Source: Neolecta irregularis DAH-3 (taxonomy: Eukaryota). Taken from it: a stretch of DNA of 37,896 nucleotides. The position numbers and the translations under genes were made by a program. Under the pieces are notes generated by a model that was not told where the DNA came from, did no database searches, and worked only from the letters and a program-made list of their open reading frames with translations. Shown here piece by piece: positions 561 to 37,896 of this stretch (position 1 is its first letter; the number at the start of each line of letters is the position of its first letter). The stretch covers positions 1 to 37,896 of the forward strand of contig LXFE01000935.1 of NCBI GenBank assembly GCA_001929475.1, in the 5' to 3' direction.

Positions 561-1501
561 ACATTATTATGTATGCATGGTTCTATTCACCCGAGAAACT
601 TCCTCCGTCTTACAATTCATGGATTAAAAAAATGAGTTGTATTGACCAAAGAATCATAGTCATGTTAAAGAAGCTTCATGATAAGGAGATACAATTTGGT
701 CAACCGTCATGCCACCGGTCGCTTGAAGACCTCTCTCGTGATTTGGGTCTTGATCCAAAGATGGGGAGCATTGAAGAAAATGACGCCTTGCCGTGTCAAG
801 TTCTCCACTCTAATATTTCCGGTTCTTGCGAAGTACATATTGCTTATCGGTGGCTAAAAGGATTCGAGTCCTCCATTGCGGTATCCTTGATCCTACCCTT
901 TTCTTTATCTGACACGTAGATTTATGTTCCGCTTTCCCTTATGTTTGCCCTACGGGATCCAACCACGAAAAACTTTAAGCGAGCATTGACGTCCGCCATA
1001 CGATCTTCCGCCTTTCTTGCCACTTTTATCTCAAATGTGTGGTAACGGATCCTCTTCTGTCTTTATATCAATAAAATCTTAGGTTGGGTATTTGTGCAAC
1101 ACGCTCAATAATCGGTCCCAAACTATTTCCTAATGTCAACCGAAATAGGTATGATGAAACGATTGGTAATCCACTACTAGGAAATCAGTCCACTACTGAT
1201 TATTAATAGGTCCACTGATTGGGTCCTTTTTATGTGGATGGAGCATATTAATAGAAAACCCCAAAAGAAGAGGTGAACTCGCTTTATTCGGTACTTGTTT
1301 ACATTCTACTGCCATTAACGTGAAGTCGTACCGAAAGCCTTAACGGTAGTATTGCCTAAATCATTGCAGCAACATCGTATCATCGAAACGGTCCTATTTG
1401 GATTAAGCACCGGTGTGATCATTCGATCGTTAATAGACGGTAAAGGTCGAAAAGTAAGGGGCGTTTTCGGTAAAACGTTACACTGGATAATGAATGCCTA
1501 A
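561..1501 (+). CDS. TMEM135-like integral membrane protein, 5'-partial (introns 881-919, 1042-1082, 1166-1209, 1291-1325)
   Basis: Spliced translation IMYAWFYSPEKLPPSYNSWIKKMS...LPCQVLH...RSSAFLATF...GSFLCGWSILIENPKRRGELALFVVPKAL matches recalled fungal TMEM135-family motifs. TAA at 1499-1501. Confidence 0.75.
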
Positions 1502-1568
1502 AAGACAAAAAGGTAGATTTCAACTATGCGTAAGATACTACATTCAATCTTGTTTCTTCCTATTGCAT

Positions 1569-4500
1569 TTAAGAGACGTATCGTCCATGTTCAACAATAA
1601 ATTTGACCCCCATCATCCATTTTCGACTCTCTTCAATGTGATTGGCCAAAGCTTCAACGACCATTCCATGAGCGGTGTCGTAATCTTTCTTCGCGATGGC
1701 TGTAATTGTATTAGCCTAATGACAGGTTCAAGATATACATTGTGCAATTTGTCGAAGTTCCTCCAATAGACTTGGCGAAATACCTTCCTCGTTATTGAGG
1801 TGATCGAATAAGATGTTCAATTTCTTTTCGGCCTCCACATTTGGCCTTCGGAATTGCGGCTATAGTGTCAATCTGATGAGAAATAAGTTAAGCCTACTGG
1901 AAGGACAGGCTTGATACGGTTCAGCTCTCCGTTGAATACATCAAAGATGATTTTATCGGCAATTAAAATATGGGATCGATCCCCTGGCGCTTAAAGTGAG
2001 TCACATTCAGTTTTAAGACATACGATATTTGCTTTGTAAAATGGGTGGAGTAGACACAGGACGTTGTTGCTGAGTAGTTGGGATACTCACAGGTTTCACT
2101 CCGCCAGCAATTTGAGCAGGCGGGTGCTGTGGGCTATATGGTTGGCTAGATCCTAGGCCAACTTGATGGTGAGGCATATAAGGAGAATTCGTTTGTTGCA
2201 TGGGACCAGATCCGCTGGCTTGTTGCGGAATGTATGGAGAAGGCGCTCCCTGAGGAGGGGGATGCATCATAGGACGTTGAGCTGGGATTTGGGAGGGATT
2301 GTTCATTTGAGAACTGGGCTGCTGTGGAATATATGGACCTGACGATTTCCTCGTCTCCTGACGCGTTGGTTGGTTCGGACCCAGTGGAGGAGGTTGCATA
2401 TTTCTGATAGCCGTTTCAGAGTGAGTGTTCATTTGTTGCGTAGGTGGTTGACCCATGACGTTTTGAGCCTGTAGCTGAACATTGGACATCGGGGGTGATG
2501 ACATGATTTTTTGGGGAGGTCGAGCATTGGTAGGGGGAGGTGCCAATGGTTGAGGTGGAGGTAATTGATTGAACACTCCTGGTTGGTGTCCATAGGCCTG
2601 TGGATTCACCTGTGTGTCTCTTTGATATGGATTTCTTCGACTTGCTGCAGGCATATTTGGTACATCGTTCCATCCCTCCAGCTTAGTCATTAGGGAAGCC
2701 GGTTTCGGCAAAGGATTTGTATTGGCAGTTCCTGAGATAATGGGTTGCTGCGGGGTGTGTACAGACATTTGTTGATGAGGTTGATAATTCATGAATTGCT
2801 GGCCCGTCGGAGGTGGAAGTGCTTGCTGAGATACTGTCATCTGGTTGGGAAATTGAGAAGTATACGGATTTGCGGAGTACTGACTCTGAGATGGAGCCGA
2901 GGGGCCGTATGAGTTGGCTGGATTCGTTGGCGCGTAAGGAGTAAATTGCGGAGCGTATGAACCACGAACACCAGCTGTTGGTTGATATCCCGAAAGTTGT
3001 TCAACGCCCCCTTGACCAGCCGGTCTAGAGTCGGACGCAGAAACTTGTTTCGGTATGAGGTTTTCCCCAATTCGAGTTTTCATTGCGATGGCGGCGGAGA
3101 AAGAGTCTGGAAGAAGACTGATATATTTTTGAGCAGTCGCAAAGTCTCCCTGAGATGCAAGGATATCTGCGTATTCTGCATATTTCTCATGCAAGATATG
3201 AAGATGCTTTCCCGTAGATACCGATTGCATTTTAACAGATTCACTCGAGTTTGTGAAAACGGTTACCCTTTCAATAAGACTCTGGAGGTGTCGCGCGTGT
3301 ATAGTGGTAAGCGAATCTCTATTAGCTGACGCTTCGGACCGAGCATGAGACAGATCCGCTTCCTCATTTTCGTGGACTTCCTGGATCCAAACATTGACAA
3401 CCTTGTCGAGACGAGAGCCGGCGAGGTAGCAAAGAGACGCATAGGATCTTGCACTACGATCCTCATTTGATTGTTCTACGAGCCGATCACCAAGGAAAGC
3501 ACAAAGGTCCGCGAATTCGCCATCCTTCGAGAATGTACAGATGATCGCGAGAATTTCTTTCCAGCTCCCAAGTTCGGCATTTCGAACAACATCCCATAAG
3601 TCATTATCAACAACGGCTGCGATGATTCGTGCGTAAGCTGGTCGAGTTTCTTCTTGTTTGAGATAAGCCAACTGTACCTTTCTTCGGCAACGTTCATTCC
3701 CGCAGAAAGCCAACATGAAAGCATCAGAAAGACGTTCTTCTTTCAGACAAATATCAATGGCGGACTCAAATTCTCCAGTGAGGATCGCCTGTGTGGCAAT
3801 TTTATCTATTTCGGAAATAGAACCCGGAAACACTTTGAAAGTCTCGTTTTTAAAGATTGACGAGGCACTGGTCGATGACTCGAGAAAGTCTTTACTATCT
3901 GCACTACTGAACAGACCGTCTGATTTGTCCTCCGATTTATTTCCTTCTGGTGCAGAATGTTTTTCCACTTCAAGTACTCCGAATTTTGCGGCGATAGCTC
4001 TTTCTAGAATCTCCTTTTTGAAGCCCAGAAATTCTGCGAGAGAAGATTTCAAGCTGCCTTTCGTGAATATTTTCAGCACGAGCCAAGTTTGCTTATCGTT
4101 TTCATCTTTTGCAGCATCAATTCGGTTCTGACAATAATCTTCCAGACTTCCTTGTTCAAGACTTTCCTCAAATGCACGAGCTCGACTGGAAACGTCTGGA
4201 TCGGAAACAAATTTTGTGATCTTGACAAGAAACTTGCGGGATCCATCTGGCTGAATTGTATTGCCAAAACATACCAGATTTCCACCAAACCCTTGAGAAA
4301 CACCGGTGGGTCTTCGAAGCCATTTTGGAGGTTGTTTGAGTGAGAACTCGTCAGCATGCGGATCGGAAAATTCTTTCTGCGCGAAGAAATCCTTTCCATC
4401 AGTTCCCTGACTGGTTTGACCTGCTTGGGTCTTGGGTCGAGTATTCTGAAGACTGTGTATGGTGATTGACCCATCGAATGAAGCATTGGCAAGAAGATCT

Positions 4501-5683
4501 GGATTATCTGGGCAAAAAGAGGTCTCTAAGACCCAGTTTGCTGCGCGAGGAAACTACAAGTTAGAAAGTGGTCATTAACAATAGATACTTCTCCAAGAAT
4601 ATCTCCATTGTTGGGATTCCAGCAGATTGTTCTGCTATCTTTTCCACCAGACAACAGCAAATCGCTGTCTTGCTTGCACCAAGACAATGAAAGTATACCA
4701 CCCTGATGACCGCTCAGAATCTAACATGTAAGTAGAATGTGTGTTACCATCATACTCTTTCGGGTGCATTCGCATTCCTTAGATCCCACATCATAATGAC
4801 TGGGTTTTGATCATCTTCAGATGCTGTGACGAGCTTTGTAGACTGATATTAGCGTATTTCTGCCAGAAGAATACATACATTCGTTGGATTCCAGGCAACA
4901 GCGCTGACACCTTGTCTGGCGCTGGATGCAGATGAACTACTCTGAGCATACAATGTCATTCGTTCGCGATTGAGTTTGACATCCCAAATAACAGTATGAC
5001 CACTACTCCCTCCCGTTGCGAGGATGTGAGGAACATTGGGATTCCACGCAACGGAATCGATATCGTCGAGTCTGCGAGAGCTTAGTGCGTAGGGTTTATC
5101 CGGATTGCCGAGGTCCCAAACCCAGATCTAATGTAAGCTAGATAGCATCCTGGATCATACCTCTCCTTTTCCACCTCCAGAAGCCAGTGCGTTTGGAAGA
5201 CTGGGATTGAATTGAACCGATTTAACATATGACGTATGTTTTTGATATCTAGCAACAAGGCATGATTCGGGACTAAAATAATAGGATTATGAGTCCAAAG
5301 AAAAAGACATACTCTAGTCCATTTAAGACAGCCTTTGGGCTCCACAAATCGACGGTTCCAGTTTCCATTGCACCCGCAATCAATCCTCGAGGATAATCAG
5401 CCGTTACATGCCCCCATGAAAGTTGATAAAATCAAAGGAATCAGATTCAAAGCAAAGGAAATATCTCTTACCGTGCGCTGCTGTTGATTGTAGCCTTTGG
5501 CTTTAATTGATATCCTTCTTGGCTATGATCGTCCAAATTTAACTCCCATAGGTCAAGCTCAGTCGTATTTGAGAAATCTGCATCAAAAGTGCCGGCGACA
5601 GTCCCAGTTGCAATAAGAGGTAGATCATGGCCTGGCGACCAGGCGAAAGTGGAGGTGCGATTAATGACCTTAAGACGAACCAT
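1569..5683 (-). CDS. SEC31: COPII outer-coat protein Sec31 (9 introns)
   Basis: N-terminus [17 protein letters not shown]...[10 protein letters not shown]40 repeats; [20 protein letters not shown]; helical domain; Pro/Gln-rich linker with GWNDVP; C-terminal KYPPGDRSHI...[15 protein letters not shown]. Confidence 0.97.
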
Positions 5684-6233
5684 TGTTGAACTCTATCAGT
5701 TGGCTCGGATGGTTAGTTATGGTTCAATTTAAAAGAAAGGAAAGATTATACACCAAGTTCAGCGTTCTATGTTGTCAATTTCGTGTAGGGCAATATGTGT
5801 TTATATAGAACTGCGATGTAATAGTCTGGGTGTTGTAAAGAGGCAGGAGAAGATGCCAGATAGCCAACTCCAACACAACTGGAGATGGAGACCGAATACA
5901 TTAGGTATTTTACAGTACTTTATTTGAAATATAGAAACATCTTCTTCAAATGCCTTAGAGGAATCTGGGATTTAGAGCCTACATCTATGTTTCTCATGAT
6001 GAAAAAACGCGTGGAATATTCAACTGGCATATCTCGCAAAAGAAAGTCACAAGCGGCCTATAGCATTTGGATGATACCTAAAATATCTCTGGCCGGCATT
6101 TTGCAAGAACTTGCATTCTAGTCTAAAGGAAACATACAATCTCCATACACCATGTATAGGAACAAAGAATGACTCTCCAGATTGTAACACTGTAGGTGTT
6201 GAAGCTCAAGTACAATAAGATCAGGTTATATTT

Positions 6234-6305
6234 CCTTAATCTAAGCTTGTAGACGTGTAAGCTTCACATACCTTAATCTAAGCTTGTAGACGCGTAAGCC
6301 TACAC
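6234..6305. repeat. 37-bp tandem duplication (2 copies)
   Basis: CCTTAATCTAAGCTTGTAGACG(T/C)GTAAGC at 6234 and 6271. Confidence 0.9.
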
Positions 6306-6869: not shown

Positions 6870-9180
6870 ATGACCATTGACCATACAGGCACCGAACACC
6901 AATACTTGAACGTTCATCCTTCATCACTTCAATCGAGTGGAAAAATGGGGTTTCCAGTTCAATCTAAAGTAAGAAGCTGCTATGAACTACTATTTTTGGT
7001 ACCTTGTTTGTTGAGCTTTTACATAAACTAATCTCACTTAGAACAACGAAATCGACCTGGAGAACGCGCCAGTCTTTTGGGCAGAATTTTCGAAGCTGCC
7101 ATGTGATTCGCTGAGTTTGGAAGCAATTGTATCCAAGTTAACAGTCCATCACTTGGAAGATCTGCAGGTTACGTCGTAGACATTACGAGCGTGTTCTAAT
7201 CAACCTTCAGTGCAGATCAATACAAAGTTACTCTTCAGAGAATGCTTGAAAAATCTGGCTGATAAGAATGGAGCTTACAGAGAAAAAGCTCTTGACGTAA
7301 GCGCTGTTCTCAGTATTCTTTATTGATGCGATGAGTAGACCTTGATCAGTTTTTTGAAATCATTATTGAGTAAACATTTCCTCAATCCTAGCACCGATAT
7401 TATCATGTTTCTAAGCGGGCTGGAGCACGTTGATGAGATCTTTACTGTATTTCAGGTATTTGATTGTCAGCTAACCGAAAGAACTTTGTGTCGTGTATAG
7501 AAGAAATATTGTCTGACAAAGAATCTCCTTGTATGTGAACGCCAACGAGAGCCTATATCTAACTGAAACAAGTGAGGCAAAAAGCGGTAACTTTGTCCCA
7601 CGTCTTTTGTAATGGAGCATACCAATCCAGTTTATTATCATATTTCTTCCATCGCGACTTCATCAGTCCCATCCTGCAGGTAAGCTTTGGCAGTATTATA
7701 TAATTCTCACACCTAGCTTATCTCTGAAGAAGACTCAACTCTCGAAGTTCGAATGCAAAGTCTTCTCTTGCTCGTCATCTTGGCTAGTTATAACCGATTC
7801 GAATCGGTCAACCAATACCAAATCGCCCTTTCCCAGATCGAAGATAGAAAATTGTTGAATGCATTCAGTTTCATTATCGGAGAAGCATGTCGAAGATGCC
7901 GAGTCAAGTATCTCAAAGTACAAGATGATACGATCGAGAAAACAGGTCTGAATAAAATGCTGTCGTTTCTCACGCTTCGTTCGAATTCATCATCCACACA
8001 AACCCTCACTCCCGAGAACTTGGATGAACTTTTCACACGTCTGTATTTTTTTTCAATCTGCCCCATTACTAATGGAAGACCAAGCACAGAGATCATTGTG
8101 TTACAATGTGCATTCGAGCTACTCAGTGACAACGAAGCCTTCGCGCGAAACTTACTCATGGGCAACATAACTGCAACAGATGAACCAGCGATTGCTTCCT
8201 ATCTGTCGTTGACTTCGTATCTACTCAGTCACCAGCGCCTGAATTCTCGAATTTATCTTTACAGCAGACTCTCCATGATTTGTATTCGGTTAATCCTTGA
8301 GAACACTTCGTGTGTTCCGCTACTTTGTAGTAAAGACACCACCATCACAGCCCATCTGTGTAGACAGCGACCGTCGTCATTATCATCCTCGCCAGCCCCA
8401 CGGTTGGCTCTCTCCATAATCATTGATATAATGATTTTGGGCATCGATTGCAATATACGAAAGCGCTTGGACGTTGAGATATATCAGTGAGGCCATTTGC
8501 ACTTTCAAATATTGATTGCAGTCTCTTTATCTTGAACATTTACAGGATAATCTGTCACTTGAAAGCAACAAAGTTTCGTATTAGTATGGGCGTATCTAAG
8601 AGTTATCTTTTTTAACAATAAGCTTTCCATTGGAATGAACTATGGCGATCACTACTCACTCTCGTCAAATTTCTCGCAATAAATTCTGAAGAATTGAAAA
8701 TACTACAAAATGTTTCTTATATGGTGGACGAATTGATAAAACTGCTGCTGTTATGTCTGGCTTCTGGGGATACATTTCTCGCAGAGTCTGCTCAACATGA
8801 CGATTTGTTTTACAAGATCCTCCAGATGAAAGACTACATTGTTATATTTCTCATAGAATGTATACGCTTTTTCATCGTCGAGCGATTTCTGACAAGTAGA
8901 TGACATTATCAAACGGGTTCCTTCGGCGACGGCGTTGACTACAGTTATTACGCACTATGAAAAGATAATCGTTGAGTCTCGAGCTGAATCAAAATCTCGT
9001 CATCTTTCATATGAACAAGTGGCGCAAGTCATCAAGAAAGGTTATAATTCACTGGAATTGTCACATCACCTTGCAAGCGGGATGTGGGAGAAATATCGGC
9101 CCTTGGATGACCAGTCATTTTTAAAGAAAGTTGTACGCCAAATCATTTCCGAATCATTGGATTTAATGAATATCGATTAA
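6870..9180 (+). CDS. ARMH3/C10orf76 (UPF0668, DUF1741)-like armadillo-type protein (~9 introns)
   Basis: Spliced frame: SKVRSCYELLF/...FWAEFSKLP...LLLVILASYNRFESVNQY...LCRQRP...FHWNELWRSL...GDTFL...HDDLFYKI...LSYEQVAQVIKKGYNSLEL. Start could be 6870 or 6945. Confidence 0.85.
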
Positions 9181-11327: not shown

Positions 11328-11960
11328 TTAGGTGTCGATGGAAAAACTTTCCCCGCAACCACATTGTGCTTTCACATGCGGGTTATTGAACACAAATCTC
11401 GCCGACAAGCGGTCTTCTACAAAGTCCATTTCGCTTCCGATAATAGAGAACAACGCCTTTGAGTCGATGAGAACTCTTACGCCTGTTGAGATTAGCCATT
11501 GGAGATTTGATGGAGTTTATGCCATCTTGGACGAGTTCTTCGTCAAACTTCCCGGGATTATCGACGTACTCAAGATGGTATGCCATGCCGGCACAACCCT
11601 TGCTCTTCACGCCGACCCGTATCAATTTTGGTGAGGGTGAATTGTAGAGATCCTTCAGTCTTGCCACAGCAGCAGAAGTCTACGCATAAGCTGACTGTAA
11701 ATGCGCCAGATGAAACAAACCAGGGTCATGGCGGCCTTTCTGGGCGTGAGAGACGGCCTCTTGGGTCTTTGTGGAGCAGCGGTAGAGGATTCATGCGAGA
11801 TGGGCGTGGATATGGAGGATTCCGGAGCGGGCGGTGTTCTTGGAGGAGCGGGACAGACAGGCAAGGTGGAACGCGGCGATTCTGAAAGGGAAGCTGAAAG
11901 AGACGCAAGCGCGCGAAAGGGAGGACGGTGCCTGGAGGAGGCAAGCAGACAGGCGAGCAT
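11328..11960 (-). CDS. ISA1: Mitochondrial Fe-S cluster assembly protein Isa1 (HesB/IscA family), 2 introns
   Basis: RVGVKSKGCAGMAYHLEY, DSKALFSIIGSEMDF and NNPHVKAQCGCGESF motifs; Arg/Ser-rich presequence. Intron 11483-11522 is GC-AG. Confidence 0.95.
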
Positions 11961-12402: not shown

Positions 12403-12463
12403 GAGTAAATGCCAATGTTTCAGTATTGTACATGAATGTAATCCCGTCCCCCGCAGCCGCAGC

Positions 12464-14528
12464 CTATTCGCTGTCGCCTCCCTCCGCTTGCTCATCTTCG
12501 CCGCTTTCTACCTCGCAGATCTCCGCTTCCTCATCGTCCAAAACCTCGAGATCATCCTCGTCTCGATCCTCGTCGCTCTCCTCAGATTCGCCCTCTTCCA
12601 GCATATCTCCCTCAGACTCACCTTCCAAATACTCAACCTCTGGGTCGTCGTCGTCGTCGTCGTTGCGTCCAGGAACCTCTTTCCGCAGTTCCATGTGTGC
12701 ATCAATAATATCCAGGCGTCCCTGAAGCTCTAGCAGTCTTGGTAGCGTAGCCGCCCGAGCAGACAGAGTGGACTGCAGCGTCGCCAGTGTCTTGACTAAG
12801 TGGGGAAGCTAATCATCAATAACATATTACGAGCCAAAAGTATACCGTGATAAGATGTGATCCATGGGCAACAATGACCCACCGTACCCAGATCCCCAGA
12901 CTTCCTGCTCTTGCGGGTTTCCTCGCCATGCGTTCAGCGAGCAGCTCTAATAGCTCTACAGCCAAAGCAGGGTTCATTTTCTGAACTGTTGCGACGACAA
13001 CCCTTGTGTCTTGATGATTAAGACATGTTTCCAGCAGTGCTTGATCTCGGGTTTTCAGAGACTGTGTAAGCACCACCGTTAATGACGATGCGGGAATGCT
13101 TTTCTGAACTCCAACTTCGGTGTTTGTTGACGGATTGGCGAGCTCAAGGGCTTGCAGTTTCTCTCCAAGGGTAGGCTCGGCCTGTTATTAGTAGAGAAAA
13201 GTATTTTAATCCTACCTCGTCATCGGATTTTTCTTCGTTGTGGATTCCATTTGTCATGCTAGGCTCTGGCTCATCAATATCCATGTCAGCCATGTTATTC
13301 CCTGCAACAGTAGTTGAGTGTGCTTCCTGGTATCCTTTGTTCTTTATGTCAGATACACTTCTCGTTTACTCTTACTGAAACACCATTCATCTTGGCTTCA
13401 TAAGTCGAGACTCTCTTCCTCACAAGCTCAATAGGCTTCTCTACAAGAGCTTTTGTCTCTGTATCTCTCCATCGTACAGCCTCTAAAACCGTCCGCGGCC
13501 CTTCAAACCAGGCAATATAGATATCATCCTTGCGAAACACAAGGTCAACAGGCAAGACTTTTTGTCCGTCTGGTCTCGATATAGTAATCCTACTAGTTGA
13601 TCCACGTGTAATGCTTTTCCTTCGTTTTGAAGAATCTGTCACATTGAATGGGGTAGTGAACAACTCGATCGTTCCATCAGCGGTCAACGAAGCCAAAATC
13701 GTATCATTGCCGGATAGTTTCTCAACATCGCTCTCAGACACCAACGCCCCGATATTCTGACACCCAAAGTCGATTTTGTAAATATTCACAAATCGATCAC
13801 CTTCCGCGGCCGTGAGAAAATGTGAAGAGCTGCCCGAGTAGATGACTGAATGAATCGGAGACGTATGACCTGTTACCGTGAATGATGGTTTCTCCAAATT
13901 TGCTTTGTAGCCATGAATTGTGTGCGATGCGTGGATTAGGTATGGCGATTTGTAAGCCAATTTATATCGGGTATTATTCGACTCTCCAGAAAATTTTCTT
14001 CATAGTTGAGTTGTACGAAATCCAAAAGAGTTACCTTTTCTGCTTCCCCTGTCCCAAGTCCCATTCAACAATCCTCCCATCTAGTCCACAAGACCAACCA
14101 ATCGTTGACTTTTCCACAAAGAGAAAATCAGTAACTTGGGAGGTATGAGCACTGGCAAGCGTCTTGACGACATCCGCAATAGTAGGTGAATATAACAAGA
14201 TATCGCCACTCGCCAAACCAATCGCCAATAATGCTTTTTCGCTGCTGACAGCAGGCGTCGTGATTTTCCTTTTCTTTTTATTATGTGAATCTGCCACCGC
14301 AATTTCAGTCCCCCATGATAAACAAGAACACTCGGCTCCTCGATCAAGTGCATATTCACTCTGTACAGCCCCCGTTTCGATCGATATAATCTGCAAACGA
14401 TATGCATCTAGAGACAAAACGGCGGAAGCAAACAGTGGTAGAAACGGATGGAACGCAGTCTTAGCAGTAATCGTGTCGGAGACATGTTTGGACCTCGTTG
14501 CCTGAGGAAATGATTTGTGTTTGACCAT
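12464..14528 (-). CDS. UTP5: U3 snoRNP/SSU processome t-UTP subunit Utp5 (WDR43), 4 introns
   Basis: N-terminal WD40 repeats, Utp12-type domain (LTQSLKTRDQALLETCL...WVRWVIVAHG...LPRLLELQGRLDII) and an acidic C-terminal tail. Confidence 0.9.
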
Positions 14529-24382: not shown

Positions 24383-25544
24383 TTATTTCCACCGAGCAAT
24401 TTTCGCCTCCTTGTATATCTCCTCCAAAACCTTCTTGCACCGTTCTATTTGCTCAAAATGCTCTTCTATAGTCCTGCCCTTGAGAGGAAGGTACTTGAGA
24501 GATTGCCGTTCGACCGCTTTCACATCTTGGGCTAGGCTCGTTATGGTATCTATGCTCGCCTTGGAATGAGTCATATGGTATATGCTGGGAAATGTCAGTA
24601 GATATTAGATGCCAGACCTTACTTGTCTAGAACTTCTTGCAGCTCGGCCTTTAGAGCCTGTGTGCGCTGTGCAGCAGTCATGCTAGCCAATTGTGTTTTC
24701 GGCTAGTAGTATTGGCTAGATACTGAAAGCAGATTGCATACCTGAGGTGATTCTCGTTCGAATGGGAGGCGGTATGAATGCCGCAGAATCGTGCTAGGAC
24801 CCAAATAACCGTTACTTCTGGTTGACTGTCTACGATTGTGCATTTGTAAAGGACTCTGTGTATACTCAGGCTCTCTTCCAGACCTTATTGAGGGAACGGT
24901 GTTGCTTCTTGGTAAAGACGGTACATGCGCCGGAAATTTTGACTGAGCTCTTGCCAACTGACCTTGGAAGCGAATATTCTCCTCCATTGATTCCGTAGCA
25001 ACATTCTCCCATCTTTCAACTCGCAGATTGAGCTCGGACAGCACATTTTTGTACTCTGCACGTTCTTTCTGGATGTTTTCGACTTGTTCTCTTAGACGCT
25101 CCTCGTAAGATTCAAACATGGTTTGCCATTGTTTATCTTTCAGTTTATGTTGCTTCTCATAATAACCCAACCGCTCAAGGAGCATATTTACGGCCACCAA
25201 ATCTGTTCTAGATAGCTAGTATACATTAGCTGTGTGCAACAAGACGTTGTATGGTTCAACACCTTGTTCAGCGAGTGGGAAACTAGATTCTTGATTTGCG
25301 TCCCATCAGGAAGATTCTCCGAGGTATCTAGATATGTTAATTCGACTTCAAAATGGAATGTACGTCTTAACAATCCGTTCTCACTTACAACTTCGATTAA
25401 TCTCTTTCGTTCGTTCATAAGGTCATTTTCCAGGCTAGTTATTTGATCTTTCAATGAGACAATTTGATCATTCAGGCGGCCGATTTGATCTCTCATATAC
25501 CTTCCTTCTTGAATAGACAGGGAAAGGCTGTTCAAATCGTTCAT
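24383..25544 (-). CDS. Hypothetical coiled-coil protein (~4 introns; start uncertain)
   Basis: Heptad-rich E/K/Q/L ORFs (25188-25589, 24703-25200, 24383-24574) can be joined in frame by 36-47 nt GT-AG introns. Confidence 0.65.
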
Positions 25545-25683: not shown

Positions 25684-28600
25684 ATGCCTACAGACATCCG
25701 TAATTATTTTGGGAACAAATCATCACCGCCAAAGAGTATACTATCGGGCACGAAAAATGCCAATACTCCAAAAGTCTCAAAGGAGGATTCAAAAACAAAG
25801 AAAGCAAAAAAGAGAATCATTGGTATTCTTTTGTCCGCATGCAGTATCTCATAAGGGTATAGTGTCCGATGATGATGACGAAGCAGATGATGTTCCTAAA
25901 GTGTACGCTACCAATCTTCGAAATATAGCTTAATAGACAGAGAGAGAGGGTTCAGCGATAAATCCCCTTCCAGGTATCTTGTAATTACATTGGTTTGCCT
26001 AAGAAAGCGAGGAAACAAGCAAAAAAAGAATCAGAATTCGAACCTACAGATGTACCCTCTTATTTCGCCTCATCCAATAAAGTCAATCGGACCGCTCCCT
26101 TGAAAAAGGCAATACCCAAGCTTCCAAAGAAGCCCAAAATTGTGGATGAAGACCATTTTATTGTTCCTGATGATTTCGATGACGATATGTCCATTGACAA
26201 CGATATTGCAACGAAAGATGAACAGGTTGCTACAACTAAATCAAATTCCAGAAAACGCAAAGCCACTGAATCGCCAGTTATTGACTTGGACAATGAGGAA
26301 AAAGCTGTTCAACCAAAAAGCGTTGCGAAGAAAACCTCCCCGAAGAAGTCCACCTCTCGTGTGAAGAAACCTCGAGTTTCTAACGAACAACATGATGATG
26401 ATCCTGATTCTGCGAAAATTAAGGCTATTCTCGATGATATCCCGACAGTTCAAGCTCCCCCACCTCCGGATTCAAAAGAATAGGTGTCACTGTGGAAATC
26501 AAGCTGATGGTCAAGGGTTTCAATTATCGCGATTTTGCCTCAAGGGGTGGACCTGCTGCTCAAGGTTCAAAGGAAATTCCTGTCGGTGCTGAAAATTGTC
26601 TTTCTGTATGAAGTCTTCCTCTATTTCGCTTACGTTAGGGGCTAAGTTTCGTCTTGACCGGTGTGCTGGAAACTATCGCACGGGATGATGCTTCTGATCT
26701 GATTAAACGTCATGGAGGGTACAAAGAACGTCGCTGAAATTCATGTTAACAAATCCAGAAAAGTGATGTCTGCACCATCGAGTAAAACAGATTTTGTCGT
26801 TCTTGGTTCCGAAGCAGGTCCGAAGAAACTCGAGACAATAGCCAAACATTGCCTTCGCACAATTGACGAAGATGGTCTTTTCCAACTTATTGGACGCCTA
26901 CCTGCGAATGGTGGCTCTGGAAAACAAGCCCAATTAGCGGCTGCAAAACGAGAAGCAGAAGACAAGAAAGCGAAAGAAATGGCGGAGGAGATGAAACCAA
27001 AAACGGATGCTGCAAAGATATTGGCTAAAAGTCAGCTGTGGACAGACAAATATGCACCGAGTAGTTTGAAAGATATCTGTGGGAACAAAGGCTTGGTTGA
27101 GAAGCTACAAAGATGGCTTCGGGATTGGTAAGTTTTATCGTCAACAAGGGCTTATAACCGCAGGCCAAAATATATCAATGCGAATTTCAAAAAGCCTGGT
27201 CCCGATGGGTCTGGTCTATATCGTGCTGTTTTGGTTAGCGGTCCACCGGGAATTGGAAAGACTACTGCTTGCCATCTTGTTGCCAAACTTGAAGGCTATG
27301 ATATTTTGGAATTCAATGCCAGTGATACTCGAAGCAAGAGGCTTATGGATGTCAGTTGAGATTTTCGTATTTGTACTGATCGTGCAGGAACAACTGCGGG
27401 GAGTTACTGATAACACTTCGTTGAATGGATACTTTGCTGCTGATGCACGGTGTTTTATCTCACCCAGCTACTAATTCTACAGGGTAAAAAAGTTGATCCG
27501 ACCAAACTAAAACTCGTAATCATTATGGATGAAGTAGATGGTATGTCTGGAGGAGACCGCGGTGGTGTCGGGCAGTTGAATGTTGTGATTAAACATACTA
27601 AGGTACGAGTTTCATTGGCAGAGCTTATTTGTAGATTCCCGTCATTTGCATTTGCAATGACAGAAAGCATCAGAAGTTGAAGCCTTTAGATAGGACTACC
27701 TTGGATATACCATTTAAACGACCGACTGCACAAGACATGAGATCCCGGCTAATGTCGATCGCCTACAGGGAACAGCTCAAGCTTGAACCTCAAGCAATTG
27801 ATCAACTCGTCGCTGGTACACATAACGATATCCGCCAAATCATCAATCTTTTATCAACTTATCGATTGAGCAATTCATCAATGACTATGGATCAAGGGAA
27901 AGTAACGTAGGTCTCAATCTTCTCATAAACTACTAATAAAAGATCACGAAATGCTCAAAAACACATCATTTTAAAGCCTTGGGACATTGTTGGCAAATTT
28001 CTTAGTGGTGGTATTTTTCATTCAACCAACAAAATCACATTGAATGAGAAAATCGAACTTTATTTTAATGACCATGAGTTTTCCTATCTTATGGTCCAGG
28101 AGAACTATCTCAAAACAAATCCAGATCTGGCTCGGAGAGTCACTGGTCCTCCCAAAGAAGTCAATATGAAGAAGCTTGAGCTCGCTGAAAAAGCTGCTGA
28201 ATCTATTTCGGACGCAGATCTAGTGGATGCAATGATCCATGGGTGACGCCGACAAATACAGGATACGAACTGATCCTTAGGCCTCAGCAGCATTGGTCGC
28301 TTATGCCTGTTCATGGAGTATTTTCTTGCGTTCGGCCTTGTTCATTTGTCCATGGGGCGGGTGTTGGTGGACAATATTCCTTTACAAGCTGGCTAGGAAA
28401 TAATTCGAAGCAAGGCAAGACAATGAGACTTTTGCGCGAGATTCAATCTCATATGCGGCTAAAGACATCTGGTGACAAAAACGAAATTCGGCAATCATAC
28501 CTTCCACTCTTGTTTAATCGACTTTCCTGCCCATTGATTGACGAGGGTGTAGAAGCTGTGCCAGATATTATCGAGACTATGGATGAATATTTCTTGACAA

Positions 28601-29018
28601 AAGAAGATTGGGACTCGATTATGGAATTGGGCATTGGCCTACAAAGCGGGGAACAAGTTTTGAAGCGAATAAGCACTGCCACGAAGTCTGCTTTTACAAG
28701 AAAGTCCGTCCCAGAAATACCAACTGCTGATGAAATAGATATAATCAAGCTAACCATCCAATTCCCTTCATGAAAGCTAGCACAGTCATGCCAACCAAAG
28801 CTGGGGCCATCCGTGATGTTCCCGACCTGGAAGATGCAGTCGAAGCCAGCGATGTCGACGCTATATTAGTAGATGAGAACCTTGATGACAACGACGATGA
28901 TGATATCTCAAAAGACAAAATGGTCAAATCTAAAGCCTTGAAGCCGAGAAAGACTGCTTCTGCCAAGGCTACCACTAAAAAGTCAAAGGCCAAGGCGAAG
29001 GCAAATAGTGTCAAGTAA
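25684..29018 (+). CDS. RFC1: Replication factor C large subunit (13 introns)
   Basis: [10 protein letters not shown] start; BRCT domain ([17 protein letters not shown]); LWTDKYAP; Walker [31 protein letters not shown]1 C-terminal domain with WLGNNSK. Confidence 0.97.
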
Positions 29019-29195: not shown

Positions 29196-30673
29196 CTATA
29201 ACTTCCATCCATGAGTCTTTGCCAACGCAATCTGCTGTCTGACAGCCAACTCCGTGAGTATTTCTTCACTACCTGCACCAACAACCATCACTCTCAAGTC
29301 ACGACTGATCTGCTCTACTCGAGCACCCTTGCCCCCTCTAGAGAATCCCTGTCCTCCGAAAACCTGTTGAGCTTCACGACAAGCGAATTCCAAGTTTCGA
29401 CCAGCTTGAACCTTGACTAGTGCGATTTGTCCAGCAAGGATTTTGTCGATAGTCTCTTTTGTGTTCATTTTAATGCTATAACCCAACTGTTCGATCCAAG
29501 CATGGGTTGATTCTATATGACGGGCTATGTTTCCGAATTTTTCTCGAATAACAGGCTGTTCAAGCAATGGTTTTCCAAAGGTATTACGTTCAGAGGCTGT
29601 ATAATTAACGAGGCCGAAAGCAAGACAAAGAACCATAATTAATAGCATCTTCAAGACAGACCCTCGCCATTCGATTTGCGGTAACAGCCATGAGTAGCCG
29701 TTCATGGTTGAAATCTACATTAGAAAATATAAAAGAGGAGGACATACTACTCATAATAATAGTAAAACCATCATTCTCTTTTCCCAGGAGATATCGAGCA
29801 GGAACTTTGACATCGTCAAAGTTGATGTAAGTGCTTCCACTGGCAGCTACTCCAGAATTATACATCTTTCTCATCCGGACCCCAGGGAGGTTTAATGGAA
29901 TAACCAAGGCGGAGATTCCTCGTCTTCCAGGGCCGCCCGTTCGAACAGCAGTTGTAGCATAATCAGAGAATATGGCATTTGTAATCCATTTTTTGGCTCC
30001 ATTAACAATGTAGTGGTCACCTTTTCGAATGGCAGTAGTTAAGAGGCCTGCAACGTCTGATCCGGCATCTGGCTCTGTTACCGCGAGACATATCTTTTTA
30101 TCTCCTTTGAGAATTGGGTATATAAGCTCATCTTTTATTGATTGAGAACCATAATTTATGACTGGTGGAAGTCCTGGATAATTAGGCAATCATAGAAACG
30201 GCTTTAAAAACCGATAGATCCGCCCATTCCAAACGCCCACATCACTCCCAAGTATCCAATTCGAGACATTTCATCAGCGCAAATGATGTCATGGAATGGA
30301 TCCCAATCTATTCCAATGAGCTGTTATTTTGTTGATAACATCAGCACCTTTTGGCTCGACATTTCCAGGAAGTTTGATGCTGCCGAGATACTGGTGAGGC
30401 ATTGGCCAGATTGAACAAGGAACTACGCCCCTTGCCGCATGACGCTTATAGACCTGATGATAAATAAACACAAGATGCAAAAAACAGTAGTACATCGTCC
30501 GGCAGTTTTCCCGCCATCTCCCATTCTTCGACGTGGGGTCGGAGTTCCTCATCGACATATTTACGCAAAACATTTCGAAGGCGGATATGAGACTCGCTAT
30601 AGTAGGGGCTTTGGCCGGAGTACCAGGCTGGATCTGCCCATGGAGTGGATTCGCCAAAGATCTGACTAGCCAT
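29196..30673 (-). CDS. Acyl-CoA dehydrogenase family protein (5 introns)
   Basis: PWADPAWY..SPYY; ICLAVTEPDAGSDVAG; YIVNGAKKWITN; FNHERL; RNTFGKPLLEQPVIR; AQQVFGGQG; VGAGSEEIL. Confidence 0.95.
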
Positions 30674-30797
30674 TTGTTGAAGTTAGTGCGGGGGAAAGAG
30701 GAGCTAACCATGTCCGAGTCACGCGGGACCTCCTTCTGATTGGACAATTTGGTCTTGGTTCGCGCTAAAACGAAAACCATTTGACTGGGAATGGGAG

Positions 30798-30935
30798 TGT
30801 AAGAACTAATTTTCTTACCAGACACGTGGTAGATGTTATCGGATTGGCAGGTATATAAACTAGTAGGCTTACGCGTACCTAACTGTAGGGACTCAATAGT
30901 ACCCTATTGTAAGAACTAATGTTCTTACCAGACAC
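30798..30935. repeat. Two 28-bp direct repeats 110 bp apart, each with a dyad core
   Basis: TGTAAGAACTAAT(T/G)TTCTTACCAGACAC at 30798 and 30908. Confidence 0.85.
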
Positions 30936-32222
30936 ATGAGTTGTCAATTACTTAGGTTAGGTATGCCTGTAAATATGACGTACAATCACTTCGGTTAGAA
31001 TATACCGGGTCTTATTCGTACTTTGGCGATCACTTACAGAGTGATTAATTCAGAATAATCAAAGACACGGCGACTTAGCGGGAGGATCTTATCTACACCA
31101 GCTGGAATAAAAGCTAGTGTGATCCTGAGCTATGAAGACGTGCCTACTGGTCTCTGATGATCAATATGACGTATTGCATTCTGAAATGTAACATCGGCAA
31201 GACCATCTGACTTTCTACGTTGTCCTGTCTGGCGACCGATCCGTGAATTTCGTCTTATGACTCAGCTGTTGCTGAGATAAATGTCAAACCTATCCAACAG
31301 TGTCCCAGAGCGGTTTCAATTCTAGCTCAAAGCAATAATTCAAACATCAATGGTCTCTATCTTCCCTACTGACGCCGCCCATAATATATCAACTCTCTAT
31401 TCCGCAGAGAAAGCAGGAGATTATGTGATTCAACAATTGGTCAAATCATTTATGCCGGGGACTACAAGGGATATCTCAAGGGTCACTTTTAGAGAGTCGG
31501 AGAAGGACCACATTCACCCCTATACTTCTCCGTCAAAAGTGATGGGAATCACGATAAAGGATGGGTCAAGGGAAGAAATGATGTCTTCAACTTTGGCGAA
31601 TTGATATGGGGAGGAACTCAAAAGATCGCTGCAATCAATTTGACAAGGAGGGGATGTGAATAACAATTTTCACTGGTTCAATTCAAAAAGGTCACAGAGA
31701 AAATGATTAAATATACCATGCTGGATAACACCATCCTTGCGTTGTGAATGGTGAAGATACTTTTGGAAGAGATGTATACTTATACGCAAATCGTACAGCA
31801 TTATCCGAATGGCCATCAATTTATTCTTTGAAATGAATGGCCGGTGTGAACATTGATAATCGTACCGATAACAGTGAACCCGGTATCGGAAACAATGAAC
31901 GGCATTACCGTTGCAGTCAGCAGCGTAGCAGCACTGAAGCCCTTGGACGAGTTTCATTATCCACTGAATACTCTATCTTTACCAGATCCCTGTGTAGAGA
32001 TGAAATTTCTATCGAGATAACATTTCGAGGGTTTGCACAGCTTACAGAGGATGAAGAGATTCTTTAAAGTAGTATTCAGAGAGAAATGCAATATGGATTA
32101 CAAATCGTTGTTATTCCTGGTTCACACGGCGGTGACGGTGGTGAACAATTTTTTTCGATCGTCTTCCACCTTTTACCGTTTGTATTTTCTTCCACCTTTA
32201 CAACATTCTTCTAGAAGCCAGT

Positions 32223-32964
32223 ATGCTCAGGACTGTTTCTAGGATACGCTTTGCTGCATGTCGATCAACCCCAACATACTTCCGACCTCTTCTCGTCTTA
32301 CGGCCAAACCCCTACTCGACAGAAGCACCCAAACCTGCAGAACCTTTAAAATCGACAGAGGAACTACAGGAGAAGAGGAAAGAAAAGCCCAAGGTAGAAT
32401 CTTCTGGAAAGGCGGAGATTACCGAGGCTGAGTCAAAGGCCAAAGAGATTGCCGAGTTGAAGGTGACTACTATTTAAAAACATAATTCACTGGTCAGGAT
32501 AAATACCTTCGCTCAAAGGCCGATTATCAAAATCTCCAGTACAGAACCGTACGTGAAGTAGCAGCAGCAAAAGACTATGCCATTCAAAAATTTGCCAAAG
32601 ACTTGATTGAGACAGTAGACAATTTTGAACGAGCCTTGAAGACAATCGCACCTGAACACCAGACTGACAGCGCACGAAATAAAGAAGTCGTCGATTTATT
32701 CAATGGCGTAAAAATGACTGAAGAAATAATGATGAAAACTCTTGCGAAACATGGATTGACGAGATATGATGGAATTGGCGAAATATTCGATCCGAATGTT
32801 CATGAGGGTATTTTCTCAAGTCCTGCACCGGATAAAATACCTGGAACCGTGTTTCATTGTGAACAAATGGGATTCATGTTGAATGGACGGGTGATGAGGC
32901 CTGCCAAGGTATGTTGTCACTAGAGCACAATATTGACTGCAAGGTTGGTATCGTAAAGGCCTAA
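32223..32964 (+). CDS. MGE1: Mitochondrial GrpE nucleotide exchange factor (2 introns)
   Basis: Presequence MLRTVSRIR; DKYLRSKADYQNL; YAIQKFAKDLIETVDNFERAL; FDPNVHE; GFMLNGRVMRPAKVGIVKA*. Confidence 0.97.
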
Positions 32965-33181: not shown

Positions 33182-34564
<1,383 letters not shown>

Positions 34565-34609: not shown

Positions 34610-35284
34610 ATGCGACATTTCAGTTTGATATTTTCTCGGCCGCGCTTTGAGAGAATATCTCACTGTCGGAGTTCACATCAATATGGTTCTACGATTACAG
34701 ATCATTCTTACTTTAGCTCCCAAAACAGTGGTTCACAGACGAGCTCAAAAGGGTCGGATACCCGTACCAAGCGGCGGCAGCACCAAAGGAATGACCTTGG
34801 AACACGGAGATTTTGGGTTGAGGTTAATCGATGAAGGCCGCAGGATATCTGCGAAGCAATTCCAAGTATATCAAATTGAAACGAGAACCGACTGTAGGTC
34901 GCCGAGGCTACGATTAAACGGGTTATCAAAGTCAATAGAGAAGCGAAATGTTATTTGCGGGTAGCCACGCATCTCGCTGTATGCACAAAGGGAAACGAGG
35001 TACGCGTATCATTTGCTATATGGTGACACAATAGAGTCGAATGGGTAAAGGGAAAGGGGGATTTGACCACTGGGCAGCTCGGTTTGGCAGCTCGGTATGT
35101 ATCTAACAATAGAGTGTCACACGGTAAAATCACCTTTGAAATTGGTATGTATTCGTGCGTTTGCATTTAACGTGTAGGCGGTGGAGATATTCGTGAGGAA
35201 ATTGCAAGAGACGCTTTACGTCAAGCAGGGGCAAAATTGCCTGGAAGACATCAATTTGTCAAGCGACAAGTACCTAAATTATAA
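34610..35284 (+). CDS. MRPL16: Mitochondrial ribosomal protein uL16m (5 introns of 31-35 nt)
   Basis: Spliced: HQYAPKTVVHRRAQKGRIPVPSGGSTKG...[25 protein letters not shown]...EEIARDALRQAGAKLPG. Confidence 0.95.
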
Positions 35285-35922: not shown

Positions 35923-36059
35923 CGGCTTAGACACTCGACAACATTACATGCATCGCAACGGGATACATAGAGGATCAGGTGCGTGGGACGAGGTTAAAAG
36001 CACGTTTGCAAAAAGTCCGCACACAACCTTTAACCGCCAAAAGCCGCAAAGCCGCCGAT

Positions 36060-37896
36060 ATGGTCCCACCCAGGCCGGAGAATGTAATAAAGGTAGGTCT
36101 ATTGCAGGTGGAGCTAATATGTAGCGCGCCGAAGGTTTATTTGATTCATGCTGTACTGATATTAGAATTGAGCGCGGTGGGTCAACAGGGCGCTGCTCTG
36201 GAAGCGCTACACTCTGCGCTGAAAAAGCCGCGAGGAGCAGCGTTATCAGTTGTTGAGCCTATCGCTTTACGATTTATTGAACTGTGTACTGATTTGCGCA
36301 AGGGCAAGGTTGCGAAAGAGGGGTTGTATGACTATCGCAAGGTAGCTCAAAACACGAATATCCAGTCTCTGGAGGCAAGATTGATTCTAGGCAAGCTAAT
36401 TTCAGCTTGTAGTCAAGACGTTTTTAGGCCAGGCGGAGAAGAAGGTGATGCAGGCTCAAGCCAAGGCGGACAAACTTTCTGTGGACAAGATTGAAGATTT
36501 AGAAGCGACGGAGACGCCGGAGAGCATCATGCTAAGTCTTGTATCGAACGAGCAGTCGAAAGACCGCACGGACCGGGAGCTGGTTACACCGTGGCTCAAG
36601 TTTCTGTGGGAGGCGTATCGCACGGTGCTGGAGACGCTCAAGAACAATTCACGGCTGGAGCAGATATACCAGGAGACGGCGCACCAGGCGTTCAACTTTT
36701 GCCTGCGGTATTCGCGCAAGGCCGAGTTTCGGCGCCTGTGCGATCTTTTGCGCAACCATCTTGGGAATGTGTCGAAATACACGGGCCAGGCGCACTCGAT
36801 CAATCTGAGCGATGCGGACACGCTGCAGCGGCACCTGGACACGCGCTTCACGCAGCTGAACGCAGCGGCGGATCTTGAGCTGTGGCAGGAAGCGTACCGG
36901 TCTGTGGAGGACGTGCACGCGCTGCTTACGATGTCGAAGCGGCCGCCCAAGCCGAGCATGATGGCGAACTACTACGAGAAGCTGGTGAGCATCTTTTTGG
37001 TGAGCGAGAACTACCTGTTCCATGCGGCGGCGTGGAGCCGGTACCTCAGCCTGATGCGAAACAAGATCAGCGAGCAGCACGAGTTCCAAAAGATGGCGTC
37101 TGTGGTGCTGCTGTCTGCGCTGGCGATCCCGGCAGCGAGCACGGCGCGGAGCAGGGGGCTTGCGGCCGAGAACGACGACGCCAAGCACAAGAGCAACCGG
37201 CTGTCGGTGCTGCTGGCGATGGGCAAGACGCCGGTGCGGGCGGGGCTGCTGCAGGACGCGCTGAGCAAGGGGCTGCTGAAGGCGGCGAGTGCGGAGCTGC
37301 AGCAGCTGTATGCCCTGGTCGAGACCGAGTTCCACCCGCTGAGCATCTGCGCGAAAGCGGCGCCGCTGGTGGAGAAGCTTGCGCTGGACGCGGATCTGCA
37401 GCCGTACATCCGGCCGCTGCACCAGGTGATCCTCACGCGGCTGCTGCAGCAGCTCGCGCAGGTGTACGCCAACGTGCAGCTGGGCTATGTTGCGCAGCTG
37501 GCGGCGCCGTTTGGCCTGACGGGGATGCAGATTGAGCAGTTTATGATGGCGGCGTGCAAGAAGGGCGAGCTGGCGGTGCGCATCGACCACGCGCGGGGGG
37601 CTGTCGAGTTTGGGGTTGATGTCTATGGGGGGCGAGCGGGGAGCCGGATATCGCGGGCGGGCAAAGCGCTCCGAGTGTTTGTGGAGTCTCTCCCGCGCTC
37701 GCACCCGCCGCCCGACCTCGAACACGACCACTCCCTCGACCACTCCCTCGAACACTCCCTCGAACACTCCCTCGAACACTCGCTCTCCCTCGAACACGAA
37801 CAAGCACTCGCGCGCAAAGAAACAATCCGCCGCCGCCGCGAGGCCGTCGAGAGCCTGCGCAGCCGCGAGGAGCGCGATCTCGCGCAGAAGCGGCTG
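36060..37896 (+). CDS. TIF32: Translation initiation factor eIF3 subunit a, 3'-partial (introns 36093-36124, 36135-36165, 36375-36405)
   Basis: RPENVIKRAEEL; DLEATETPESIML; DRTDRELVTPWLKFLWEAYRTVL; PCI domain (ETEFHPLSIC; LLQQLAQVY). The frame stays open to the window end, so it is absent from the ORF track. Confidence 0.97.
37717..37800 (+). repeat. Coding 12-bp minisatellite (CTCGAACACTCC) encoding LEHS repeats in eIF3a
   Basis: In-frame translation DLEHDHSLDHSLEHSLEHSLEHSLSLEHE. Confidence 0.9.

Follow-up and report, generated by a model that had tools for sequence, protein, structure and literature searches.

Very short introns with weak splice signals in a contig of Neolecta irregularis and the information carried by their length

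Contig LXFE01000935.1 of Neolecta irregularis DAH-3, an early-diverging ascomycete of the Taphrinomycotina, was analysed over its whole length of 37,896 nucleotides (nt) (hereafter the window; ∼43% GC, with a 10-N gap at 551–560). Its genes are cut by very short introns with weak splice signals. A first-pass annotation had placed about 75 of them and suggested that the spliceosome here may rely on length more than on consensus. We found that the introns are real, that all but one of those placed measure 31–42 nt, that their motifs are weak, and that length separates them from decoys better than the motifs do. We consider it likely that they are ordinary major-type (U2-dependent) introns, shrunk to near the smallest workable size and recognised by intron definition.

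Evidence for the short introns

Introns were placed in two tiers (n = 65, Table 1). Tier A (n = 27) comprises introns from public protein models or homology, namely 21 annotated introns, five homology-checked introns of the acyl-CoA dehydrogenase gene and one intron of eIF3a. Tier B (n = 38) was predicted by our own gene finder with a length prior, and introns were kept if the frame needs their removal and the flanking exons are at least 20 nt; two eIF3a introns flanking a 10-nt exon were entered into this tier by hand. Twelve more short candidates, unneeded for the frame or lying beside very small exons, were excluded. With these candidates the possible total rises to 77, in agreement with the earlier count.

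Single-exon searches led to the public Neolecta irregularis DAH-3 proteins RFC1 (P0001, 940 aa) and SEC31 (P0121, 1169 aa). Exact mapping of these proteins placed 13 GT-AG introns in RFC1 and eight in SEC31, and the spliced models of both genes are identical to the public proteins. For the acyl-CoA dehydrogenase, junctions were taken from our own gene model and compared with homologues from other fungi; Neolecta's own enzyme was not among the matches of the representative search. Alignment with homologues was gapless over ±6 residues at 8 of 13 junctions in RFC1, 6 of 8 in SEC31 and 4 of 5 in the acyl-CoA dehydrogenase, so that 18 of these 26 junctions are gapless in most homologues, and the remaining ones lie in variable regions. 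Weak signals were supported in this way as well, including the donors GTACAA (39/39), GTGACG (37/39), GTCCGT (29/39), GTTTTT (36/36) and GTTCTT (35/35), besides GTCAGT and GTACGA, and the AAG acceptor of RFC1 intron 11 (39/39 gapless). Moreover, the Pfam Rgp1 profile runs on across adjacent frames (2–84, 83–166, 167–343 and 337–414), and the spacing of the two GPI8 segments (16–92 then 106–151) is consistent with a 35-nt intron. The genome paper reports RNA-seq support for 99.4% of genes.

Hand placement or mis-annotation could in principle hide longer introns with stronger sites, and both the first-pass annotation and our own finder carried short-intron expectations. With a flat length prior over 20–600 nt and a flat intron penalty, predictions still clustered at 30–39 nt (11 of 22 predicted introns at a penalty of −8, and 13 of 54 at −6), and this finder did propose long introns, 30 of the 54 being at least 200 nt. 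These were later shown to be exon skipping and were rejected, since they skip small exons present in the public RFC1 protein. Furthermore, homologues are gapless up to the short-intron junctions, consecutive Pfam coordinates in adjacent frames leave no space for long introns, and the published genome-wide totals give a mean of 41 nt. Thus an artefact of placement is highly improbable. A finder capped at 90 nt with no length prior recovered only 3 to 8 of the 13 RFC1 introns; the length-prior finder, trained without RFC1, recovered 10 of 13 there and all eight in SEC31. On this sequence evidence the short introns of the window are confirmed as real, over the stretch given by the first-pass annotation (561–36405) and beyond chance.

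Lengths, splice signals and intron class

In tier A the median length is 37 nt, with 26 of 27 introns in 31–41 nt. Both tiers together have a mean of 36.9 and a median of 37 nt, with 62 of 65 introns in 31–41 nt and 64 in 31–42 nt, although the tier B lengths are not independent evidence because the finder used a length prior. The histogram forms a plateau over 31 to 42 nt, with no heaping at the minimum, and without the single outlier the lengths are 36.5 ± 2.9 nt. This narrow plateau, together with the weak donor, branch and acceptor motifs described below, bears out the general picture of the first-pass annotation, as does its range of 31–41 nt for most introns; its upper bound of ∼48 nt fails at one annotated intron of 68 nt (RFC1 intron 4, 26448–26515), the only one of the 65 above 48 nt, for which no shorter in-frame solution was found on inspecting the sequence.

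The termini are GT-AG in 64 of 65 introns and GC-AG in one (36375–36405), which the earlier annotation did not mention. Beyond GT the donor holds 1.4 bits of information in tier A, and 1.6 bits when the two tiers are pooled; GTRNGT donors number 6/27 and 11/65, respectively, while position +3 is A in 45 and position +5 is G in 34 of 65 introns. Four of the weak donors quoted previously (GTTTAT, GTCCGT, GTGACG and GTACAA) were recovered, and a fifth, GTTCTA, is absent from the 65. Acceptors hold 0.7–0.8 bits beyond AG, the base at −3 being T in 32, C in 17, A in 15 and G in 1. The 15 AAG acceptors (4/27 in tier A) match the earlier report of more than a dozen. A GAG acceptor, of which the first pass had noted one apparent case, is present only at RFC1 intron 3 (25974–26011), where the public model places it; splicing to an AAG that ends at 26007 would also keep the frame and may be the true form. 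A pyrimidine tract is absent, with 54–56% pyrimidine in the last 12 nt before the AG.

An expectation-maximisation search returned a putative branch motif, YTNAY, in which the third position is fully degenerate. Of the 27 tier A introns, 26 contain it, and on an earlier tier A of 26 introns it was present in 25/26 against 9.5/26 expected in random segments. The stricter CTRAY is present in only 12 of 27, and the branch-like GCTTAT, GCTCAT and GCTGAG noted in the first pass were all found. From donor to presumed branch A the median distance is 27 nt (interquartile range 26–29), and from branch A to the intron end it is 7–8 nt. The first AG past the motif is the acceptor in 23 of 26 tier A introns, a count that is partly circular because the 3′-most motif was chosen.

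U12-type introns carry an RTATCCTT donor and a TCCTTAAC-like branch 10–15 nt from the acceptor. The introns of the window are not of this type, as a U12-like 5′ end was found in just 1 of 65. This predicted intron (881–919, + strand) starts GTATCCTT, matching the U12-type donor consensus, and its branch region is CTGAC-type, not U12-like; the resemblance of its 5′ end is probably due to chance.

Length against consensus in intron recognition

In a decoy test, models that had not been trained on the tested gene scored all GT..AG pairs of 20–600 nt in the sense pre-mRNA of each of three genes (RFC1, SEC31 and the acyl-CoA dehydrogenase). Decoys that equalled or outscored a true intron were counted, and the median was taken per gene. 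With the three motifs these numbers were 204, 148 and 182, respectively; with length alone they fell to 32, 43 and 40, and with motifs and length combined to 4, 0 and 2, which comes close to sufficing within these transcripts. Because length alone leaves fewer decoys than the three motifs, the narrow distance window discriminates more than consensus strength does. In terms of information, length contributes ∼5.7–5.9 bits (against a uniform 20–600 nt), the 5′ splice site 5.0, the 3′ splice site 4.6 and the branch at most 5.7. These results bear out that the geometry is no less informative than the motifs in separating introns from decoys, a conclusion about information and not about the action of the spliceosome. 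The first-pass interpretation is thus partly supported: length prevails over consensus in information terms, and the reliance of the spliceosome on length is a hypothesis.

In the explanation that we favour, each of these U2-dependent introns has a GT donor (once GC) with slight further consensus, roughly GTA-Y-G-T, and lacks a pyrimidine tract. A degenerate YTNAY branch would lie ∼27 nt from the donor, the acceptor would be the first AG some 7–8 nt past the branch A, and the sites would be recognised across the intron. Because the two spacings are nearly fixed, geometry would supply as much discriminating information as the motifs or more, and this near-fixed geometry has probably allowed the motifs to degenerate. 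Pairing across the intron is in line with eIF3a, where a predicted 10-nt exon lies between introns of 32 and 31 nt and therefore could not be defined across the exon.

Several points weigh against this explanation. The branch motif reaches 5.7 bits, and the same search in random segments reaches 4.8 bits; branch points were assigned from sequence, and the motif matrices were built on at most 65 introns. Of these, 38 were predicted by our own finder under a length prior, and that finder had already erred at least once, on a 64-nt intron in eIF3a. The annotated 68-nt intron has a branch-like motif ∼59 nt from its donor, so the spacing is not obligatory and the length window is not absolute. Moreover, when motifs and length were scored over the whole window on both strands, no excess of high scores was found relative to the reversed sequence (88 vs 112 at scores of at least 20, and 21 vs 24 at scores of at least 22). 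Hence other cues are needed, and motifs plus length are insufficient without knowledge of strand and transcript.

This last result would also be expected if the introns had shrunk passively, by deletion bias and streamlining, down to a steric floor, their length being an incidental outcome of no use to the spliceosome. Specificity might then come, and we put this forward no less tentatively than the shrinkage itself, from the motifs together with AT-richer introns, the co-transcriptional order of sites and the decay of mis-spliced RNA. Intron GC is indeed 0.37 vs ∼0.43 for the window, and short introns are found in relatives too. An in-frame stop is present in 19 of 29 introns of known phase, and in 6 of the 7 among them whose length is divisible by three. 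Against 9.7 expected, these 7 are too small a number to show a depletion of such lengths, and tier B is biased by its construction. However, passive shrinkage to a floor does not readily account for a plateau of 31 to 42 nt in place of a pile-up at the minimum, and with the motifs alone, hundreds of decoys in each gene outscore the true introns, a cue tied to spacing being the simplest addition. We regard passive shrinkage as a possible but doubtful explanation.

A modified spliceosome that measures distance would explain some of the same observations, namely the very low donor information, the degenerate base before the branch A, the narrow donor–branch spacing and the dominance of length in the decoy test. 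In such a system the parts that read consensus (such as the 5′ end of U1 small nuclear RNA (snRNA), U6, SF1 or U2AF) would be changed or lost, and a ruler of ∼27 nt would run from GT to the branch. A strict ruler is countered by the 68-nt intron, and in S. pombe a standard spliceosome works on degenerate sites (PMC4787815). The window is silent on snRNAs and splicing factors, and Rfam at gathering scores gave no matches in it. We think a distance-measuring spliceosome unlikely, and we would hesitate equally over the broader proposition that ∼19,000 introns are spliced mainly by a fixed donor–branch span of ∼27 nt, the donor bases from +3 to +6 and the one just upstream of the branch A being left largely unread. 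If that were so, no intron-rich fungus would show geometry-driven intron definition in a more extreme natural form; U1, U6, SF1 or U2AF should then have changed to match, and exons should have been purged of intron-like pairs.

Purging was assessed by counting intron-like GT..AG pairs of 25–60 nt in exons and in synonymous-codon shuffles. In 39 model exons the real and shuffled counts were 10 vs 19.1, 2 vs 8.4 and 0 vs 3.0, a result that is confounded because our own finder removes such pairs. Over the 22 exons of the genes used in the decoy test they were 3 vs 6.7 (37 of 300 shuffles as low), 1 vs 3.1 (64/300) and 0 vs 1.1 (111/300), all in the same direction and none significant. Real exons thus hold roughly half as many intron-like pairs as shuffles, non-significantly so in the unbiased subset.

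Known short-intron systems and the remainder of the window

S. pombe pairs its splice sites by intron definition, and its GTANGT/CTRAY consensus is clearer than that of Neolecta (GTRNGT 11/65, CTRAY 12/27). It belongs to the same subphylum and likewise has short introns, and PMC4787815 describes its splice sites as highly degenerate, on a par with those of mammals. In fission yeasts, introns are longer and much less numerous than in Neolecta (S. cryophilus, 5642 introns with a mean of 74.7 nt in the supplementary table of Lim et al. 2021, PMC8476143). The same table lists 19,467 introns for Neolecta (806,929 nt, mean 41.45 nt) and 17,782 for P. carinii (862,266 nt, mean 48.5 nt), and gives means of 61 nt for Mixia and Wallemia, 64 for Protomyces, 75 for S. 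cryophilus, 79 for Taphrina, 80 for Mitosporidium and 83 for Saitoella. Of the ten intron-rich fungal genomes compared from that table, Neolecta has the lowest mean, and the text of the paper names Cryptococcus (63 bp) as its short-intron example. Pneumocystis resembles Neolecta in belonging to the Taphrinomycotina and in being intron-rich, at a similar or higher density, with very short introns; the mean length of 48.5 nt in P. carinii exceeds that of Neolecta, which is 41.45 nt genome-wide and 36.9 nt in the window.

Length was reported to contribute considerably to fungal intron recognition (Iwata and Gotoh 2011), and for some species the account of fitild (2018) attributes as much as ∼30% of the information to it. 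The shortest mean among the 61 species of Iwata and Gotoh is 56 bp, and the Neolecta introns are clearly shorter and more uniform; Neolecta is not named in the main texts of these two papers, as searched. The introns of the window are therefore an extreme case of a known short, intron-defined fungal type, for which length as an aid to recognition is already established. The word 'intron' occurs nowhere in the main text of the genome paper, and our literature searches found no paper treating Neolecta splicing or intron size. The short-intron pattern is thus already implicit in the public annotation and apparently undiscussed in print.

Tiny introns also occur outside these fungi, as in Paramecium (∼25 nt), nucleomorphs and microsporidia. 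Those of the Paramecium type are like the introns of the window in having a narrow length peak near the lower limit and many in-frame stops if retained. Ciliates, nucleomorphs and microsporidia are unrelated to Neolecta, and microsporidia are intron-poor (36 introns with a mean of 29.8 nt in Encephalitozoon cuniculi; PMC8476143, supplementary table), whereas Neolecta is intron-rich. With thousands of introns of ∼37 nt and exons down to 10 nt, Neolecta would offer a natural test-bed for the way in which introns are located by a standard spliceosome once consensus has almost vanished. Its genome will be mis-annotated by gene finders and aligners that assume strong sites, GT-only donors or a minimum intron of ∼40 nt; our own finder is an example, having skipped small exons under a flat length prior and missed the GC-AG intron.

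Table 1. Introns placed in the window, with one micro-exon. Fractions are homologues aligned gaplessly across the junction; P0001 and P0121 denote mapping of the public protein.
Feature	Coordinates	Strand	Length (nt)	Ends	Tier	Basis
SEC31 intron 1	5273..5312	-	40	GTATGT..TAG	A	P0121; 1/32, variable N-terminus
SEC31 intron 2	5128..5160	-	33	GTATGA..TAG	A	P0121; 37/37
SEC31 intron 3	4843..4878	-	36	GTATGT..CAG	A	P0121; 37/38
SEC31 intron 4	4721..4755	-	35	GTATGA..TAG	A	P0121; 37/37
SEC31 intron 5	4554..4588	-	35	GTATCT..TAG	A	P0121; 38/38
SEC31 intron 6	1990..2023	-	34	GTATGT..AAG	A	P0121; 1/38, variable region
SEC31 intron 7	1860..1897	-	38	GTAGGC..TAG	A	P0121; 25/25
SEC31 intron 8	1700..1738	-	39	GTATAT..CAG	A	P0121; 26/26
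RFC1 intron 1	25823..25862	+	40	GTATTC..TAG	A	P0001; 10/32, variable N-terminus
RFC1 intron 2	25903..25940	+	38	GTACGC..CAG	A	P0001; 1/32
RFC1 intron 3	25974..26011	+	38	GTATCT..GAG	A	P0001; 10/30
RFC1 intron 4	26448..26515	+	68	GTTCAA..AAG	A	P0001; 0/38, unconserved region
RFC1 intron 5	26606..26638	+	33	GTATGA..TAG	A	P0001; 38/39
RFC1 intron 6	26719..26758	+	40	GTACAA..CAG	A	P0001; 39/39
RFC1 intron 7	27128..27163	+	36	GTAAGT..CAG	A	P0001; 39/39
RFC1 intron 8	27351..27387	+	37	GTCAGT..CAG	A	P0001; 33/39
RFC1 intron 9	27452..27492	+	41	GTTTTA..AAG	A	P0001; 0/39
RFC1 intron 10	27603..27634	+	32	GTACGA..TAG	A	P0001; 37/39
RFC1 intron 11	27907..27942	+	36	GTAGGT..AAG	A	P0001; 39/39
RFC1 intron 12	28243..28280	+	38	GTGACG..TAG	A	P0001; 37/39
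RFC1 intron 13	28704..28738	+	35	GTCCGT..TAG	A	P0001; 29/39
Acyl-CoA dehydrogenase intron	30454..30493	-	40	GTACTA..CAG	A	own model; 27/34
Acyl-CoA dehydrogenase intron	30308..30347	-	40	GTGCTG..TAG	A	own model; 13/35
Acyl-CoA dehydrogenase intron	30174..30211	-	38	GTTTTT..CAG	A	own model; 36/36
Acyl-CoA dehydrogenase intron	29715..29747	-	33	GTATGT..TAG	A	own model; 34/36
Acyl-CoA dehydrogenase intron	29597..29633	-	37	GTTCTT..CAG	A	own model; 35/35
eIF3a intron 3	36375..36405	+	31	GCAAGA..CAG	A	human eIF3a alignment and Pfam
eIF3a intron 1	36093..36124	+	32	GTAGGT..TAG	B	model
eIF3a micro-exon	36125..36134	+	10			between 32-nt and 31-nt introns
eIF3a intron 2	36135..36165	+	31	GTTTAT..TAG	B	human alignment begins just past acceptor
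Unknown-family gene intron	881..919	+	39	GTATCC..TAG	B	model, in-frame stop inside
ARMH3-like intron	7006..7041	+	36	GTTTGT..TAG	B	model, required for frame
ARMH3-like intron	7297..7338	+	42	GTAAGC..TAG	B	predicted
ARMH3-like intron	7447..7481	+	35	GTATTT..AAG	B	predicted
ARMH3-like intron	7531..7572	+	42	GTATGT..AAG	B	predicted
ARMH3-like intron	7693..7729	+	37	GTATTA..AAG	B	predicted
ARMH3-like intron	8039..8078	+	40	GTCTGT..AAG	B	predicted
ARMH3 C-terminal domain intron	8860..8899	+	40	GTATAC..TAG	B	Pfam ARMH3_C match split across flanking frames
Unnamed gene intron	11680..11720	-	41	GTTTGT..TAG	B	weak model
Utp12/WDR3-like intron	12809..12845	-	37	GTATAC..TAG	B	predicted
Utp12/WDR3-like intron	13182..13215	-	34	GTAGGA..CAG	B	predicted
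Utp12/WDR3-like intron	13342..13375	-	34	GTAAGA..AAG	B	predicted
Utp12/WDR3-like intron	13998..14034	-	37	GTAACT..AAG	B	predicted
Rgp1 intron	17180..17215	-	36 (or 33, 17183-17215)	GTTCAT..	B	Pfam Rgp1 167-343 then 337-414
Rgp1 intron	17692..17729	-	38	GTGCAT..TAG	B	Pfam Rgp1 83-166 then 167-343
Rgp1 intron	17976..18012	-	37	GTATAG..CAG	B	Pfam Rgp1 2-84 then 83-166
Rgp1 intron	18703..18739	-	37	GTAAGT..TAG	B	predicted
GPI8 (peptidase C13) intron	19933..19967	+	35	GTATTT..AAG	B	branch-like GCTGAG; Pfam 16-92 then 106-151
GPI8 intron	20143..20180	+	38	GTACCT..TAG	B	predicted
GPI8 intron	20299..20331	+	33	GTACAA..TAG	B	predicted
WD40 (MABP1/WDR62-like) intron	22334..22370	-	37	GTTCGT..TAG	B	predicted
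WD40 gene intron	22469..22504	-	36	GTATTG..AAG	B	predicted
WD40 gene intron	22952..22985	-	34	GTGGGA..TAG	B	predicted
WD40 gene intron	23249..23289	-	41	GTATAT..CAG	B	predicted
Coiled-coil gene intron	24585..24622	-	38	GTAAGG..CAG	B	predicted
Coiled-coil gene intron	24703..24741	-	39	GTATGC..TAG	B	predicted
Coiled-coil gene intron	25208..25245	-	38	GTCTTG..TAG	B	predicted
Uncertain gene upstream of GrpE, intron	32031..32069	+	39	GTTTGC..AAG	B	weak model
GrpE intron	32463..32497	+	35	GTGACT..CAG	B	Pfam GrpE match begins 3 residues into next frame
GrpE intron	32909..32943	+	35	GTATGT..AAG	B	predicted
Mitochondrial PheRS intron	33374..33405	-	32	GTACGA..AAG	B	predicted
Mitochondrial PheRS intron	33684..33717	-	34	GTACTC..CAG	B	Pfam tRNA-synt_2d match split across two frames
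Mitochondrial ribosomal L16 intron	34866..34897	+	32	GTATAT..TAG	B	predicted
L16 intron	35000..35034	+	35	GTACGC..TAG	B	predicted
L16 intron	35082..35112	+	31	GTTTGG..TAG	B	predicted
L16 intron	35145..35177	+	33	GTATGT..TAG	B	predicted

The GC-AG intron of eIF3a is placed by a human eIF3a alignment that reaches 36377 in the upstream frame and by a Pfam match that begins at 36406 in the downstream frame. Its GC donor stands in a strong GC-type context, and it replaces the predicted 64-nt GT-AG intron, of which the human alignment covers the first 36 nt. With the micro-exon spliced in, the N-terminus of the protein matches a start that we take to be conserved in eIF3a. We further rejected a 40-nt intron placed ahead of the true start of eIF3a. 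Other attempts were also set aside: 'introns' of 244 and 203 nt were gene merges, an over-fitted intron model chained an entire strand as one gene, and an open-frame-joining statistic of poor design was dropped because, at every length, hits for control dinucleotide pairs outnumbered those for GT-AG.

In RFC1, our own model gives an in-frame alternative to introns 2 and 3, consisting of 25901–25936 and 25974–26007, the latter with the AAG acceptor mentioned above. An in-frame alternative to intron 9 (27445–27482) has a GC donor and a CAG that is the first AG past its branch motif. These alternatives (within 25901–26011 and 27445–27492) could reflect alternative splicing or choices of annotation.

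A Pfam scan of the open frames of the window showed eukaryotic genes densely packed on both strands, encoding SEC31, an ARMH3-like protein, a Utp12/WDR3-like protein, mitochondrial ribosomal L28, Rgp1, GPI8, a WD40 protein, a coiled-coil protein, RFC1, acyl-CoA dehydrogenase, GrpE, mitochondrial PheRS, mitochondrial L16 and eIF3a. A tRNA search of the window found none. Open frames without a confident model from our finder are present at 5400–6900, 9200–11300, 14640–15600 and 30700–31800, and further introns may lie in these regions. The region 11300–12800 is GC-rich (0.50), strongly skewed and crowded with overlapping open frames on the two strands; it gave no Pfam match and no stable gene model from our finder. 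At 400–550 on the + strand, a direct repeat of ∼28 nt occurs in two copies ∼120 nt apart, the second of which adjoins the scaffold gap at 551–560.

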